A stretch of 64,000 nt of DNA from Escherichia coli (lineage in GTDB: Bacteria; Pseudomonadota; Gammaproteobacteria; Enterobacterales; Enterobacteriaceae): assembly GCF_044324875.1 (NCBI RefSeq), contig NZ_CP172185.1. One strand, given 5' to 3'. Shown here one piece after another: positions 2,999-28,168 of this stretch (position 1 is its first letter; every line of letters begins with the position of its first letter). Position numbers and translations under genes: made by a program. Below the pieces are notes generated by a model. It saw nothing but the letters and a program-made list of their open reading frames with translations, had not been told where the DNA came from and made no database searches.

Positions 2999-3005
2999 TA
3001 CAGCA

Positions 3006-5009
3006 TCAGGCACCTTTCACTCCCAGCACCTTATGCGCTTTTGCCACAATATTCTCGGCGGTAAAGCCAAAGAACGGGAACAGCTTATCTGCCGGAGCAG
3101 ATTCCCCATAACCTGTCATCCCAACAATCGCCCCTTTCAAACCAACATACTTGTACCAGTAATCGGCGATGCCTGCTTCCACCGCCACGCGAGCCGCAAC
3201 GTTAGAAGGCAACACCGACTCCCGATATTCCTCATCCTGGGCGTCGAAAATATCGGTCGAAGGTAGGGAAACTACGCGTACATTACGACCTTCTCCCGCT
3301 AATTTCTCCGCCGCTTGCAGGGTGATTTCCATCTCTGAACCGGTGGCAATCAAAATAATATCTGGCTTGCCGCCGCTGTCTTTCAGCACATAACCACCAC
3401 GAGCAATCTCTTTAACCTGATCCGGCGTACGTTCCACCTGGGCCAGATTCTGCCTTGAGAGGATCAGTGCCGTCGGTCCGTTGTGGCGCTCAACCGCCAG
3501 CTTCCAGCCTACCGCTGCTTCCACCTGATCGCACGGTCGCCAGGTGCTGAAATTTGGCGTTAAGCGCAAACTGGCCAGTTGCTCAACAGCCTGGTGGGTC
3601 GGACCATCTTCCCCTAAGCCAATTGAGTCGTGGGTATAAACCATAATCTGCCGCGCTTTCATCAGTGCCGCCATCCGCGCGGCGTTACGGGCGTATTCAA
3701 CAAACATCAGGAACGTCGCGGTATACGGCACAAAGCCGCCGTGGTGCGCAATGCCGTTGGCGATAGCGGTCATGCCAAATTCACGCACCCCGTAGTGAAT
3801 GTAGTTGCCCGCCGGATCTTCCTTCAGCGAAACAGAACCTTTCCAGATGGTCAGGTTGCTGGGAGCCAGATCCGCCGAACCGCCGAGCAACTCCGGTAGC
3901 ATAGGCCCGTAAGCGTTAAGCGTATTTTGCGAAGCCTTACGGGTAGCGATTTTCGCCGGATTCGCCTGCAATTCATTGATATATTTCTGAGTCGTTTTCT
4001 CCCAGTCCTTCGGCAAACCGCCGCTCATCCGACGGGTAAACTCTTCTGCCAGTTGCGGATGGGCCTTTTTATAGGCGGCAAACTTCTCATTCCAGCTCTG
4101 CTGCGCTTTTTCGCCTTTTTCGCGGGCATCCCAGGCGTGATAAATCTCTTTAGGGATCTCAAATGGCGGATGGTGCCAGCCCAGTTTTTGCCGTGCCAGC
4201 GCCACTTCTTCTTCCCCCAGCGGTGCGCCGTGCGCCTCTTCCTTACCTGCTTTATTCGGCGAACCAAAGCCAATTACTGTGCGGCAGATAATCAGCGACG
4301 GCTTATCTTTCACGCTTTGCGCTTCAAGGATCGCTTTCTTCACCGCCTGCGGATCGTGACCGTCGATTTCATGGATCACATGCCAGTGATAGGCTTCAAA
4401 ACGTTTTGCTGTATCGTCGGTAAACCAGCCTTCGGTTTCACCGTCGATGGAAATACCGTTGTGATCGTAAAAACCAATCAGCTTGCCCAGTCCCAGCGTG
4501 CCCGCCAGCGAACAGACTTCGTGGGAAATACCTTCCATCAGGCAACCGTCGCCCATAAACACATAGGTGAAGTGATCGACAATTTCATGATCCGGCTGGT
4601 TAAACTGCGCCGCCAGTGTACGCTCTGCTATCGCCAGTCCGACGGCGTTCGCCAAACCTTGTCCAAGTGGACCGGTGGTGGTTTCAACACCTGGCGTATA
4701 GCCAATCTCCGGGTGACCTGGGGTTTTTGAATGCAACTGACGGAAGTTCTTCAGCTCTTCCAGCGGCAGGTCGTAACCGGTCAGATGTAGCAAACTGTAG
4801 AGCAGCATCGACGCGTGGCCGTTGGAAAGAATAAAGCGGTCGCGATCATACCAGGTTGGGTCGGTGGGGTTATGTTTAAGAAAATCGTTCCACAGCACTT
4901 CGGCAATATCAGCCATGCCCATCGGCGCGCCGGGATGACCAGAATTGGCTTTTTGTACCGCATCCATACTGAGTGCGCGAATCGCATTGGCAAGGTCTTT
5001 TCGGGACAT
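3006..5009 (-). CDS. tktB: transketolase 2
   Basis: Protein from [21 protein letters not shown] recognised as TktB (667 aa); ATG at 5007..5009 (complement) inside longer track ORF 3006..5072. Confidence 0.93.
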
Positions 5010-24592: not shown

Positions 24593-25462
24593 TTACCGCT
24601 TTCTCGAGTGTGCTTTCTGGTTGTCAAACCAGTGGAAATAACTGATCACGCCTTCGGCAATCGCTGTGGCGATTTTCTGGCGAAACGCCGCAGTGCCTAA
24701 CAGCCGCTCTTCTTCTGGGTTGGTGATAAACGAGGTTTCCACCAGCACCGAAGGAACCGACGGCGATTTCAACACCACAAACGCGGCTTGTTCGGTGTTG
24801 CGGCTGTGCAGTTTATGCACCGGCTTAATCTTTTTCAGAATATGCGAGCCGAGCGTCAGGCTGTTTTTAATAGTATCGGTTTGCACCAGATCAAACAGCA
24901 CTTGCTGCAATAGGTGATCCTTGTCAGTCGCCTTTTTACCGGCAACTTCATCGGCGCGGTTTTCGCGTTCAGACAGGTATTTCGCCATTGCGCTACTTGC
25001 CCCACGGTTAGAGAGGGCAAATACCGAAGCACCGGCAGCTTTCGGGTTGGTAAAGCCGTCGGCATGAATTGACATAAACAGATCTGCGCCATGTTTATGG
25101 GCGATTTCAACGCGATCGTATAGTGGGATAAACGTATCGCCAGAACGCGTTAAACGCGCATCAATGCCATGATTACGCAAAATGGAACGGACGTTTTTAG
25201 CAATCGCCAGCACCACATGTTTTTCTTTCGAACCGTTGCGCCCGATCGCTCCGGTATCAATCCCGCCGTGGCCTGGATCGAGAACAACGACACGTTTGCC
25301 GCCAGATTTTTTGGCTTTCGGCTTGCTGTGTCCGTTGCTGGTTTTTAAAGGTTCGTCTTTGGCGATGGCTTGCGACATTCCTGACAACGTCAGGGCAGCC
25401 AAACCGGCTTTCAGCACCTGGCGGCGCGAAGTGAGTGTTTTTAGTGGTTTAAAAGTGCTCAT
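24593..25462 (-). CDS. amiA: N-acetylmuramoyl-L-alanine amidase AmiA
   Basis: 289 aa with Tat-like signal peptide and amidase_3 domain; directly upstream of hemF on the same strand. Confidence 0.93.
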   Translation of the reverse strand: MSTFKPLKTLTSRRQVLKAGLAALTLSGMSQAIAKDEPLKTSNGHSKPKAKKSGGKRVVVLDPGHGGIDTGAIGRNGSKEKHVVLAIAKNVRSILRNHGIDARLTRSGDTFIPLYDRVEIAHKHGADLFMSIHADGFTNPKAAGASVFALSNRGASSAMAKYLSERENRADEVAGKKATDKDHLLQQVLFDLVQTDTIKNSLTLGSHILKKIKPVHKLHSRNTEQAAFVVLKSPSVPSVLVETSFITNPEEERLLGTAAFRQKIATAIAEGVISYFHWFDNQKAHSRKR

Positions 25463-25675
25463 ACGGCCTGAGTTGTAATAATAAAGTTCCAGATGTTATA
25501 TCGTATCGCGTAATCCGTTACGACCGTTTGCTGTTGAGAATTGTTTTACTTTTCATTTCAATAGTTGACAACTCCCCATTATGCCACTTTTTCAACCGAT
25601 TTTCGTCAGATATTGGCTAATTCGACCGTTCACGCCATAATCAGCCTTTTAACCCGCAAAAAGGTAACGAATACC

Positions 25676-26101
25676 ATGGAGATACGCGTATTTCGCCAGG
25701 AAGATTTCGAAGAGGTCATCACCCTTTGGGAGCGTTGCGACTTGCTGCGTCCGTGGAACGATCCGGAAATGGACATCGAGCGTAAGATGAACCATGACGT
25801 CAGTTTGTTTCTGGTCGCTGAGGTAAACGGTGAAGTGGTCGGAACGGTGATGGGCGGTTATGACGGGCATCGCGGGTCTGCTTATTATCTTGGCGTGCAT
25901 CCAGAGTTTCGTGGGCGTGGGATTGCTAATGCGTTGCTTAATCGGTTGGAGAAAAAGCTGATTGCTCGCGGCTGCCCGAAAATTCAGATCAACGTGCCGG
26001 AAGATAACGACATGGTGCTCGGAATGTATGAACGCCTGGGATATGAACACGCCGACGTGCTGAGTCTGGGTAAGCGTTTGATTGAAGATGAAGAGTACTG
26101 A
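25676..26101 (+). CDS. ypeA: GNAT-family acetyltransferase
   Basis: 141 aa from [14 protein letters not shown]; ATG at 25676 in frame inside track ORF 25565..26101. Confidence 0.88.
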
Positions 26102-26537
26102 GTTTCATCCTGTCCATTATGATGCACACGGTCGCCTGCGTTTACCCTTGCTCTTCTGGCTTGTGCTATTGCTTCAGGCGCGAACCTGGGTGCTGTTTGT
26201 CATTGCCGGTGCGTCGCGCGAGCAGGGTACTGCGCTGCTAAATCTGTTTTATCCCGATCACGATAATTTCTGGCTGGGGTTGATTCTCGGCATTCCGGCG
26301 GTGCTGGCGTTTTTGCTGAGTGGTCGGCGGGCTTCATTTCCCCGTATCTGGCATGTGCTCTATTTTCTGTTGCTGTTGGCGCAGGTGGTTTTACTTTGCT
26401 GGCAACCGTGGCTGTGGCTGAACGGTGAATCCGTTAGCGGTATCGGGCTGGCGCTGGTAGTGGCGGATATTGTGGCGTTAATCTGGCTGCTGACCAATCG
26501 ACGTTTACGCGCTTGTTTTAATGAAGAAAAAGAATAA
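26088..26537 (+). CDS. yfeZ: inner-membrane protein YfeZ
   Basis: About 149 aa hydrophobic protein; start uncertain between 26082 and 26088; overlaps the ypeA 3' end. Confidence 0.8.
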
Positions 26538-26597
26538 CGGCACTTTTTGGTGAATTTGCACTCCAAGCAACGTTATTGAATAACCAAAGGAAGTGAC

Positions 26598-27173
26598 ATG
26601 AAATCGCTGCGTTTAATGTTATGCGCTATGCCGTTGATGCTGACCGGCTGTTCCACGATGTCGTCAGTTAACTGGTCTGCCGCTAACCCGTGGAACTGGT
26701 TTGGGTCGTCCACCAAAGTGAGCGAGCAGGGCGTTGGTGAATTAACGGCGTCCACACCACTGCAAGAACAAGCCATTGCTGATGCGCTTGATGGCGATTA
26801 TCGCCTGCGCAGCGGAATGAAAACCGCGAACGGCAACGTGGTGCGCTTTTTTGAAGTGATGAAAGGCGACAACGTGGCGATGGTGATTAACGGTGATCAA
26901 GGCACGATCAGCCGCATTGATGTGCTGGATAGCGATATTCCTGCTGACACCGGTGTTAAAATCGGTACACCGTTTAGCGACCTTTACAGCAAAGCATTTG
27001 GCAATTGCCAAAAAGCTGATGGTGATGATAATCGTGCCGTCGAATGTAAAGCCGAAGGCAGTCAACATATTAGCTACCAGTTCAGCGGGGAATGGAGTGG
27101 TCCTGAAGGGTTAATGCCTTCGGACGATACCCTGAAAAACTGGAAAGTCAGTAAAATTATCTGGCGGCGTTAA
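26598..27173 (+). CDS. yfeY: lipoprotein YfeY
   Basis: 191 aa; signal peptide with lipobox LTGC. Confidence 0.88.
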   Translation: MKSLRLMLCAMPLMLTGCSTMSSVNWSAANPWNWFGSSTKVSEQGVGELTASTPLQEQAIADALDGDYRLRSGMKTANGNVVRFFEVMKGDNVAMVINGDQGTISRIDVLDSDIPADTGVKIGTPFSDLYSKAFGNCQKADGDDNRAVECKAEGSQHISYQFSGEWSGPEGLMPSDDTLKNWKVSKIIWRR

Positions 27174-27184
27174 TTTGCGTCTGA

Positions 27185-28168
<984 letters not shown>

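Follow-up and report, generated by a model that had tools for sequence, protein, structure and literature searches.

A 14-nucleotide overlap of ypeA and yfeZ in Escherichia coli and its probable origin within the Enterobacteriaceae

The window analyzed here is a 64,000-nt stretch of an Escherichia coli genome (NCBI RefSeq assembly GCF_044324875.1, contig NZ_CP172185.1). It contains the neighboring genes ypeA and yfeZ, which lie on the same strand between the divergent gene amiA and the downstream genes yfeY and yfeX (Table 1). Profile searches place YpeA among the GNAT acetyltransferases through PF00583 (E = 1.9e-21; 77 bits, cut-off 20.7) and in the YpeA group through the NCBIfam equivalog NF002959 (259.8 bits, cut-off 124), and three structures deposited as YpeA (PDB 2pdo, 4qus and 4qvt) match the protein over its full length with E of about 1e-94. 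YfeZ belongs to the DUF2919 family, matching positions 1-145 of the 146 in PF11143 with E = 2.2e-49 (168 bits, cut-off 27.2), and its hydropathy plot contains four hydrophobic segments. The first position of the PF11143 profile corresponds to Phe 26103, just past the ypeA stop.

Table 1. Features at the ypeA-yfeZ locus (window coordinates unless a locus is named)
Feature	Position	Strand	Remarks
amiA	24593..25462	-	Divergent from ypeA
Sigma-70-type promoter of ypeA-yfeZ	25613..25641	+	TTGGCT-17-CATAAT; consensus scan
ypeA, GNAT acetyltransferase, 141 aa	25676..26101	+	TGA stop at 26099-26101; RefSeq annotation agrees
TGA stop in the yfeZ frame	26079..26081	+	Closes the frame upstream; directly adjoins TTG 26082; frame translation
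Alternative yfeZ start TTG	26082..26084	+	20-nt overlap; unconserved (ypeA Ile136 codon variation)
ypeA codons 137-139 (GAA GAT GAA)	26084..26092	+	Synonymous sites frozen; hold the yfeZ ATG and its flanks
yfeZ, DUF2919 inner-membrane protein, 149 aa	26088..26537	+	Conserved ATG start; RefSeq annotation agrees
14-nt overlap, ATGAAGAGTACTGA	26088..26101	+	ypeA reads ..D E E Y *; yfeZ reads M K S T E
yfeY, RpoE-regulated lipoprotein (DUF1131)	26598..27173	+	Own strong Shine-Dalgarno sequence (anti-SD -8.2 kcal/mol)
yfeX, Dyp-type peroxidase	27269..28168	+	DUF2919 neighbor also conserved outside Enterobacterales
DUF2919-Dyp peroxidase loci	L088 2628-4072; L089 3001-4536; L097 3001-4840		Compare window 26088-28168

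In type II toxin-antitoxin pairs with a GNAT toxin, the toxin gene shares an operon with a small gene upstream of it that encodes a DNA-binding antitoxin. Such a pair was considered for ypeA and rejected: its upstream neighbor is the divergent amiA, and its partner lies downstream and encodes a protein with four hydrophobic segments that is not DNA-binding.

The yfeZ frame is +1 relative to ypeA; it opens at the TTG at 26082 and ends at 26537. The overlap therefore measures 20 nt when counted from the TTG and 14 nt when counted from the ATG at 26088, and RefSeq uses the ATG, with a 149-aa product and a 14-nt overlap. A preliminary description of the window had placed the yfeZ start inside the 3' end of ypeA, 14-20 bp before its stop and in another frame, and this is confirmed by the reading frames and the RefSeq annotation. 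The 1.4-kb stretch around the overlap is matched in 5425 of 5426 complete E. coli genomes.

The same junction was collected from 80 species loci of a one-genome-per-species collection, using a genome scan with a 12-sequence alignment, and codon counts were made on the 50 full-length Enterobacteriaceae species loci that are in the overlap state. At the position of the TTG, the Ile136 codon of ypeA is ATT in 33 of these loci, ATC in nine (turning TTG into TCG) and ATA in eight (turning it into the stop codon TAG). A conserved yfeZ start at TTG 26082 is thus out, since 17 of 50 species have lost the codon or carry a stop in its place. Every one of the 51 overlap-state loci from other genomes keeps the ATG at -14. 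The earlier proposal of two possible starts stands to the extent that both codons are present in the window, but only the ATG is conserved. On this comparative evidence, ATG 26088 is taken as the sole conserved start of yfeZ. The practical gain is that the start is fixed at the ATG, against the TTG implied by a few records.

A different reading is that the annotated start is wrong and that yfeZ really begins past the ypeA stop, without any overlap. Mis-annotated start codons are common and the ATG has no Shine-Dalgarno sequence, yet the frame itself leaves little room for this alternative. Between 26091 and 26147 there is no in-frame ATG, GTG or TTG in yfeZ, and the next candidates, TTG 26148 and GTG 26163, both fall within the first hydrophobic segment, i.e. 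transmembrane helix 1. When 37 diverse DUF2919 proteins are aligned, YD..G.L.P stands out as the most conserved motif near the N-terminus; it lies 5-17 residues from the annotated N-terminus and, counting from the ATG, 10 residues from it in E. coli YfeZ. Codons 6-25 of yfeZ are under purifying selection, with a dN/dS of about 0.12 at a dS near saturation, and the ATG is kept by selection on a ypeA synonymous site. A downstream start is excluded because the most conserved motif of the family begins right past the ypeA stop, and we consider a non-overlapping yfeZ to be extremely improbable. The preliminary description depended on the start not lying downstream of the ypeA stop, and it holds on this point, since initiation at TTG 26148 or GTG 26163 would delete YD..G.L.P. 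A literature search returned no ribosome-profiling, start-site, N-terminal or direct expression data for yfeZ; the gene has no entry in TRAINSPOTTER, and the table of Burkhardt 2017 contains yfeY and yfeX but neither ypeA nor yfeZ.

The position of yfeZ in the +1 frame of ypeA also raises the idea of a programmed +1 frameshift in the overlap that would produce a YpeA-YfeZ fusion. One E. coli record, P0007, does encode MEDEEYWFHPVHYD... across the junction. The shift would have to take place within 26082-26098, or within 26085-26098 in species with TAG at the TTG position, and this interval contains no known slippery motif. None of 120 listed homologues combines GNAT and DUF2919 domains, and each of the two sequences that look fused is known from a single record, one of which derives from error-rich reads. 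The frameshift fusion is left without support and is regarded as most improbable. P0007 itself (corresponding to window 26084-26110) lacks one nucleotide at the ypeA stop, so that the ypeA frame runs on into yfeZ and reads MEDEEYWFHPVHYD...; this may be a natural YpeA-YfeZ fusion or else a sequencing error.

Codon usage in ypeA carries a further signature of the embedded start. Among the 50 overlap-state loci, 97 degenerate ypeA codons have an invariant amino acid, and only five of the 97 use a single codon in all 50 species. Codons 137-139, which follow one another, account for three of these five, an outcome with a probability of 6.8e-5 for a given set of three codons. The third base of the Asp138 codon, which forms part of the yfeZ ATG, is fixed, with GAT in 50 of 50 loci, whereas ypeA has nine further Asp codons and every one of them varies. 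In 29 non-overlap loci the same codon is GAT in 22 and GAC in seven, which differs from 50/0 with a Fisher P of 5e-4 when species are treated as independent. The invariant ATG and the frozen third base of Asp138 together argue, at the level of sequence comparison, that the ATG overlap is more than chance.

Across 51 overlap-state loci from other genomes and the E. coli reference locus, which is identical to the window here, the overlap follows the consensus ATGAAGA[G/A]TA[C/T]TGA. Variation is confined to two ypeA synonymous sites (GAG/GAA and TAC/TAT), and these ypeA synonymous changes flip YfeZ residue 3 between Ser and Asn and residue 4 between Thr and Ile. In the shared bases the amino acids are thus set by ypeA, with yfeZ adding only the constraint of the ATG and of AAG as second codon. 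Over the whole genes, dN/dS is 0.03 for YpeA and about 0.15 for YfeZ, so that YpeA evolves about five times more slowly, with dS near saturation.

The order ypeA, yfeZ, yfeY is kept in all 80 loci, and the divergent amiA is present in 79 of them; in the remaining one (L013) the contig ends upstream of ypeA. The overlap is found in Escherichia, Citrobacter, Enterobacter, Klebsiella, Raoultella and Kluyvera, and also in Kosakonia, Phytobacter, Pluralibacter, Trabulsiella, Yokenella and relatives. In overlap species the C-terminus of YpeA reads EDEEY*. It reads EDREY* in Erwinia and Pantoea and EDQEY* in Cedecea, Mangrovibacter, Rahnella, Rouxiella, Serratia and Entomohabitans. Since Erwiniaceae, Yersiniaceae and basal Enterobacteriaceae carry Gln or Arg at YpeA residue 139, most of them have no ATG at that position, and in the EDREY* and EDQEY* lineages yfeZ has its own start downstream. 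The distance from the ypeA stop to this start is 0-47 nt in Erwiniaceae, Cedecea and one Citrobacter-labelled isolate, and about 146 nt in Mangrovibacter. An opposite-strand BOF (PF04076) gene stands between ypeA and yfeZ in Rahnella, Serratia, Siccibacter, Entomohabitans and Rouxiella L080, where the yfeZ start is 430-800 nt past the ypeA stop. In three loci (L034, L039 and L043) EDEEY and a relic ATG are kept, and the displaced yfeZ has acquired another start codon, one whose Shine-Dalgarno pairing is better.

The direction of evolution is inferred by outgroup comparison without a tree, with Erwiniaceae and Yersiniaceae as outgroups. Read in this way, the overlap is most simply a derived state confined to one clade. 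Residue 139 of YpeA would have changed to Glu (GAA) in the ancestor of the 'core' Enterobacteriaceae, and the preceding Asp codon GAT together with GAA would then have spelled ATG. This new ATG may have taken over as the yfeZ start, a clade-specific compaction rather than the sign of a two-protein machine. Later selection would have fixed the ATG and its A-rich flanks at the price of three frozen synonymous sites in ypeA, with the first YfeZ residues drifting along with ypeA synonymous changes. If so, the locus is a clean case in which one amino-acid change creates the start codon of the next gene and then freezes nearby synonymous sites.

Overlaps can arise by migration of a start codon or by extension of a gene into its neighbor. 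The ypeA-yfeZ junction fits start-codon migration, in that the change from Gln or Arg to Glu at residue 139 would have given the downstream gene a new start and its new N-terminal residues are poorly constrained; it is a textbook example of the migration and extension route.

Several other contents of the junction were recorded. The opposite-strand gene for a periplasmic BOF protein (bacterial OB-fold, PF04076) occupies the gap in L049, L055, L064, L067, L069-L073, L075, L080 and L081. A BOF gene between ypeA and yfeZ, seen in two families, may represent the ancestral arrangement, later lost. The gap in Rouxiella L066 is 426 nt long, and an ORF scan of it gave none of at least 60 aa. Gaps of about 1.2 kb in L034 and L043 (Superficieibacter and Phytobacter massiliensis) hold an opposite-strand gene resembling S9/alpha-beta-hydrolases, and in L100, a Pantoea-like genome, an amino-acid permease gene and a DoxX gene, both on the opposite strand, separate ypeA from yfeZ (474-2608). 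Genes seem to have been gained or lost repeatedly at the ypeA-yfeZ junction. In Pseudocitrobacter vendiensis (L010), the -14 ATG is used by a 156-aa DUF2919 paralogue that is 38% identical to YfeZ (2504-2977). The true yfeZ follows behind it (3001-3447) and keeps the old junction ATGAAGcATACTGAG as its own start.

The distribution of the two genes bears on whether YpeA and YfeZ form a functional pair, perhaps an acetylation module tethered to the membrane, with an overlap that fixes the ratio of the proteins or aids their co-assembly. Both genes occur in the same neighborhood in all 80 Enterobacterales loci and in L100, and short overlaps are enriched among complex subunits (PMC10666635). Against a pair, opposite-strand genes intervene between them in Rahnella, Rouxiella, Serratia, Siccibacter, Entomohabitans, Superficieibacter, Phytobacter massiliensis and L100, and YpeA evolves at about one-fifth of the rate of YfeZ. 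The pair is moreover scored 'CMPLX not' in a published catalogue of E. coli overlaps (Huber et al., 2023, Table S2).

The wider DUF2919 family, which comprises 181 clusters at 50% identity, also speaks against such a module: a GNAT gene upstream of the DUF2919 gene was found in none of the 11 distant members outside Enterobacterales with readable context. Co-occurrence of ypeA and yfeZ outside Enterobacteriaceae, which the preliminary description had suggested checking, is accordingly not conserved beyond Enterobacterales (0 of 11), and inside the order it is often interrupted. We judge a functional pair to be unlikely. The earlier remark that the pairing has no obvious functional rationale is borne out by the restriction of the overlap to one clade, the intervening genes in several lineages and the absence of the pair outside Enterobacterales. 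The overlap by itself is no proof that YpeA and YfeZ cooperate.

A stronger form of the idea treats the -14 overlap of core Enterobacteriaceae as a selected reinitiation device lacking a Shine-Dalgarno sequence, which would tie YfeZ output, small and fixed, to every round of YpeA synthesis on the premise that both proteins act together. This proposal is given a slightly lower chance still. If true, it could mean, for example, a membrane-anchored acetylation step linked to the envelope and porphyrin neighbors amiA, hemF, yfeY and yfeX.

A different partner emerges from the same distant members. In three of the 11 (L088, L089 and L097), a gene for a Dyp-type peroxidase, the homologue of yfeX, follows the DUF2919 gene directly or past one small gene, and crr-ptsI lies just beyond the peroxidase gene in L089 and L097. 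This arrangement echoes yfeZ-yfeY-yfeX of E. coli. From gene order, the linkage of DUF2919 with the Dyp peroxidase looks older than that of ypeA with yfeZ, which hints that YfeZ may be functionally allied with YfeX. The comparison cautions against taking an overlap as evidence of shared function, the wider DUF2919 partner being the Dyp peroxidase yfeX and not an acetyltransferase. Two other distant DUF2919 genes have two-partner-secretion genes as neighbors: the one in L085 (809-3210) is beside an HMW1C-like glycosyltransferase gene, with a 4-nt overlap, and the one in L093 (1261-3507) is beside a ShlB/POTRA transporter gene.

Transcription of the two genes probably begins at the sigma-70-type promoter upstream of ypeA, and the same hexamers are given for 'ypeA-yfeZ' among the RpoD constitutive promoters of Shimada et al. 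(2014; PMC3946193). Because the genes share a strand and overlap, neither a terminator nor a promoter could fit between them. The two genes are co-directional and placed on one transcript, and co-transcription in vivo is inferred. A promoter-like match inside ypeA (25860-25888) was dismissed as no better than chance, with four matches against 2.0±1.6 expected.

The preliminary description had held that the overlap implies translational coupling. Coupling is best when stop and start are from -4 to +3 nt apart, and longer overlaps reduce it more than spacers of equal length (Brown and Wade, PMC12548453); in one reporter series it fell steadily from -4 nt and was gone at -25 (PMC12548453). The stop-start spacing of -14 is outside this efficient range and differs from the NTGA and TGATG arrangements. 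In the 20 nt upstream of the yfeZ ATG, pairing with the anti-SD sequence amounts to -3.8 kcal/mol, which is at the 49th percentile and equals the median of the operon background; the 51 overlap-state loci from other genomes average -3.3. No Shine-Dalgarno sequence for yfeZ of the kind expected in a coupled pair was found inside ypeA.

Folding gives a similar picture. The 101 nt around the yfeZ start have a minimum free energy of -18.8 against a shuffle mean of -24.5 (z = +1.8), with 199 of 200 shuffles folding at least as well, and a minimum of predicted RNA structure is conserved at the start across 50 species, which places it among the least structured stretches of the operon. Folding thus revealed no RNA structure of the kind expected in a coupled pair that would block de novo initiation at the yfeZ start, and coupling of the RNA-unfolding type is unlikely at a start that is unstructured. 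Based on these models, the yfeZ start looks like a real but weak initiation region.

Evidence in the other direction comes from loci in which the genes are separated. Shine-Dalgarno pairing averages -3.3 in the overlap state, -2.6 at distances of up to 47 nt and -5.2 at distances of at least 146 nt, where the best value is -8.8. Far-apart genes differ from overlapping genes and from those within 47 nt with Mann-Whitney P values of 1e-6 and 1e-3, treating species as independent, in a comparison that ignores spacing, takes non-overlap starts from alignment and draws on related species. A stronger Shine-Dalgarno sequence where the genes are far apart is as expected if nearby translation of ypeA supplies ribosomes, and may be taken as a hint of this. 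The claim that the overlap implies coupling is therefore too strong, given the -14 spacing and the lack of both a Shine-Dalgarno sequence and an inhibitory structure, but some coupling is plausible in view of the rise of Shine-Dalgarno pairing with distance. Weak translational coupling of ypeA and yfeZ is what the comparison would plausibly allow.

Studied overlaps show both outcomes. Four of five overlapping E. coli pairs tested by Huber et al. (2019) were coupled, usually with help from a Shine-Dalgarno sequence, which was important in four of the five, and bioBF is an overlapping E. coli pair without coupling that initiates de novo (PMC6728339). The overlap of ypeA and yfeZ could likewise be spatial only, with fresh 30S subunits binding the unstructured A-rich AAGAUGAAG without help from ypeA ribosomes, as an open A-rich site is able to attract ribosomes unaided; those translating ypeA may even occlude it now and then. 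This reading draws on the absence of an inhibitory structure to unfold (z = +1.8 in a conserved structure minimum) and of a Shine-Dalgarno sequence to hold a reinitiating ribosome, on the weakness of coupling at long overlaps and on the precedent of bioBF. INRI-seq, a cell-free map of start sites, also reports an in-frame internal initiation site at +111 of ypeA (PMC9825163, Table S3), in an AAGATGAA context and without upstream translation. What counts against it is that a separated yfeZ tends to gain Shine-Dalgarno complementarity that is absent near ypeA, suggesting that the close arrangement supplies something, and that the site has no recognizable ribosome-recruiting element beyond its low structure. 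Wholly independent initiation is the main rival reading, and we judge it to be somewhat less likely than not. The INRI-seq site itself corresponds to the ATG of ypeA codon 38 (window 25787-25789), whose AAGATGAA context is the same as that at the yfeZ start.

As a whole, we lean modestly towards an account in which one transcript carries both genes, yfeZ starts at ATG 26088 in an open site that is independent of a Shine-Dalgarno sequence and partly fed by reinitiation, and the overlap is a by-product of compaction. As the second gene of a two-gene transcript, yfeZ would be initiated at the ATG without Shine-Dalgarno pairing, in an unstructured purine-rich stretch. Part of this initiation probably comes from ribosomes that end ypeA at its UGA and move back to the nearest AUG (termination-reinitiation). 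Under the scanning model, the start nearest the stop is used (PMC12548453), so the ATG and not the TTG is the predicted start. Reinitiation at -14 should be inefficient, which would fit a low-abundance membrane protein.

Comparison with known systems places the overlap among ordinary ones. The pair is already catalogued as '-14, CMPLX not', and the same source lists, among its first ~70 same-strand pairs of E. coli K-12, ftsI-murE at -14, thiP-thiQ at -17 and thiB-thiP at -25 (Huber et al., 2023, Table S2). Like ypeA-yfeZ, these are same-strand operon neighbors with a start 14-25 nt inside the upstream gene, the spacing of ftsI-murE being identical. Unlike ypeA and yfeZ, which have no known shared function, each belongs to one pathway or transporter. 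Canonical NTGA (-4) and TGATG/TAATG (-1) pairs (PMC6728339) resemble ypeA-yfeZ in being co-directional, with a start at or before the upstream stop that places the ribosome finishing the first gene at the start of the second. The ypeA-yfeZ pair departs from them in its -14 spacing, with neither a Shine-Dalgarno sequence in the upstream gene nor an inhibitory structure.

The coat-lysis overlaps of the RNA phages fr and MS2, at -38 and -50, are the classic cases of backward scanning after termination (PMC12548453). They share with ypeA-yfeZ a start well upstream of the stop and use of the start nearest the stop, which matches the conservation of ATG over TTG. In the phages, however, the overlaps are far longer and serve a regulatory role of their own, with coupling that experiments have proven. 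A 14-nt overlap is ordinary for E. coli and this one was already catalogued; what the comparison adds is a secure assignment of the start to the ATG, the freezing of synonymous sites in ypeA and evidence that points to a young, clade-specific overlap. Their significance beyond housekeeping is small.

The closest annotated E. coli strain, ETEC1738 (L095), shares colinearity with the window only between about 20000 and 29000. In ETEC1738, two copies of ISVsa5 (IS4 family; L095 12171-13379 and 18623-19831) interrupt eutJ and eutB. BLAST between the two corresponding stretches of the window revealed no repeat, and the window apparently lacks these copies. In the annotated 50-kb neighborhood of ETEC1738, which is not in window coordinates, gene overlaps measure 1, 1, 4, 4, 4, 11, 11, 14 and 26 nt.
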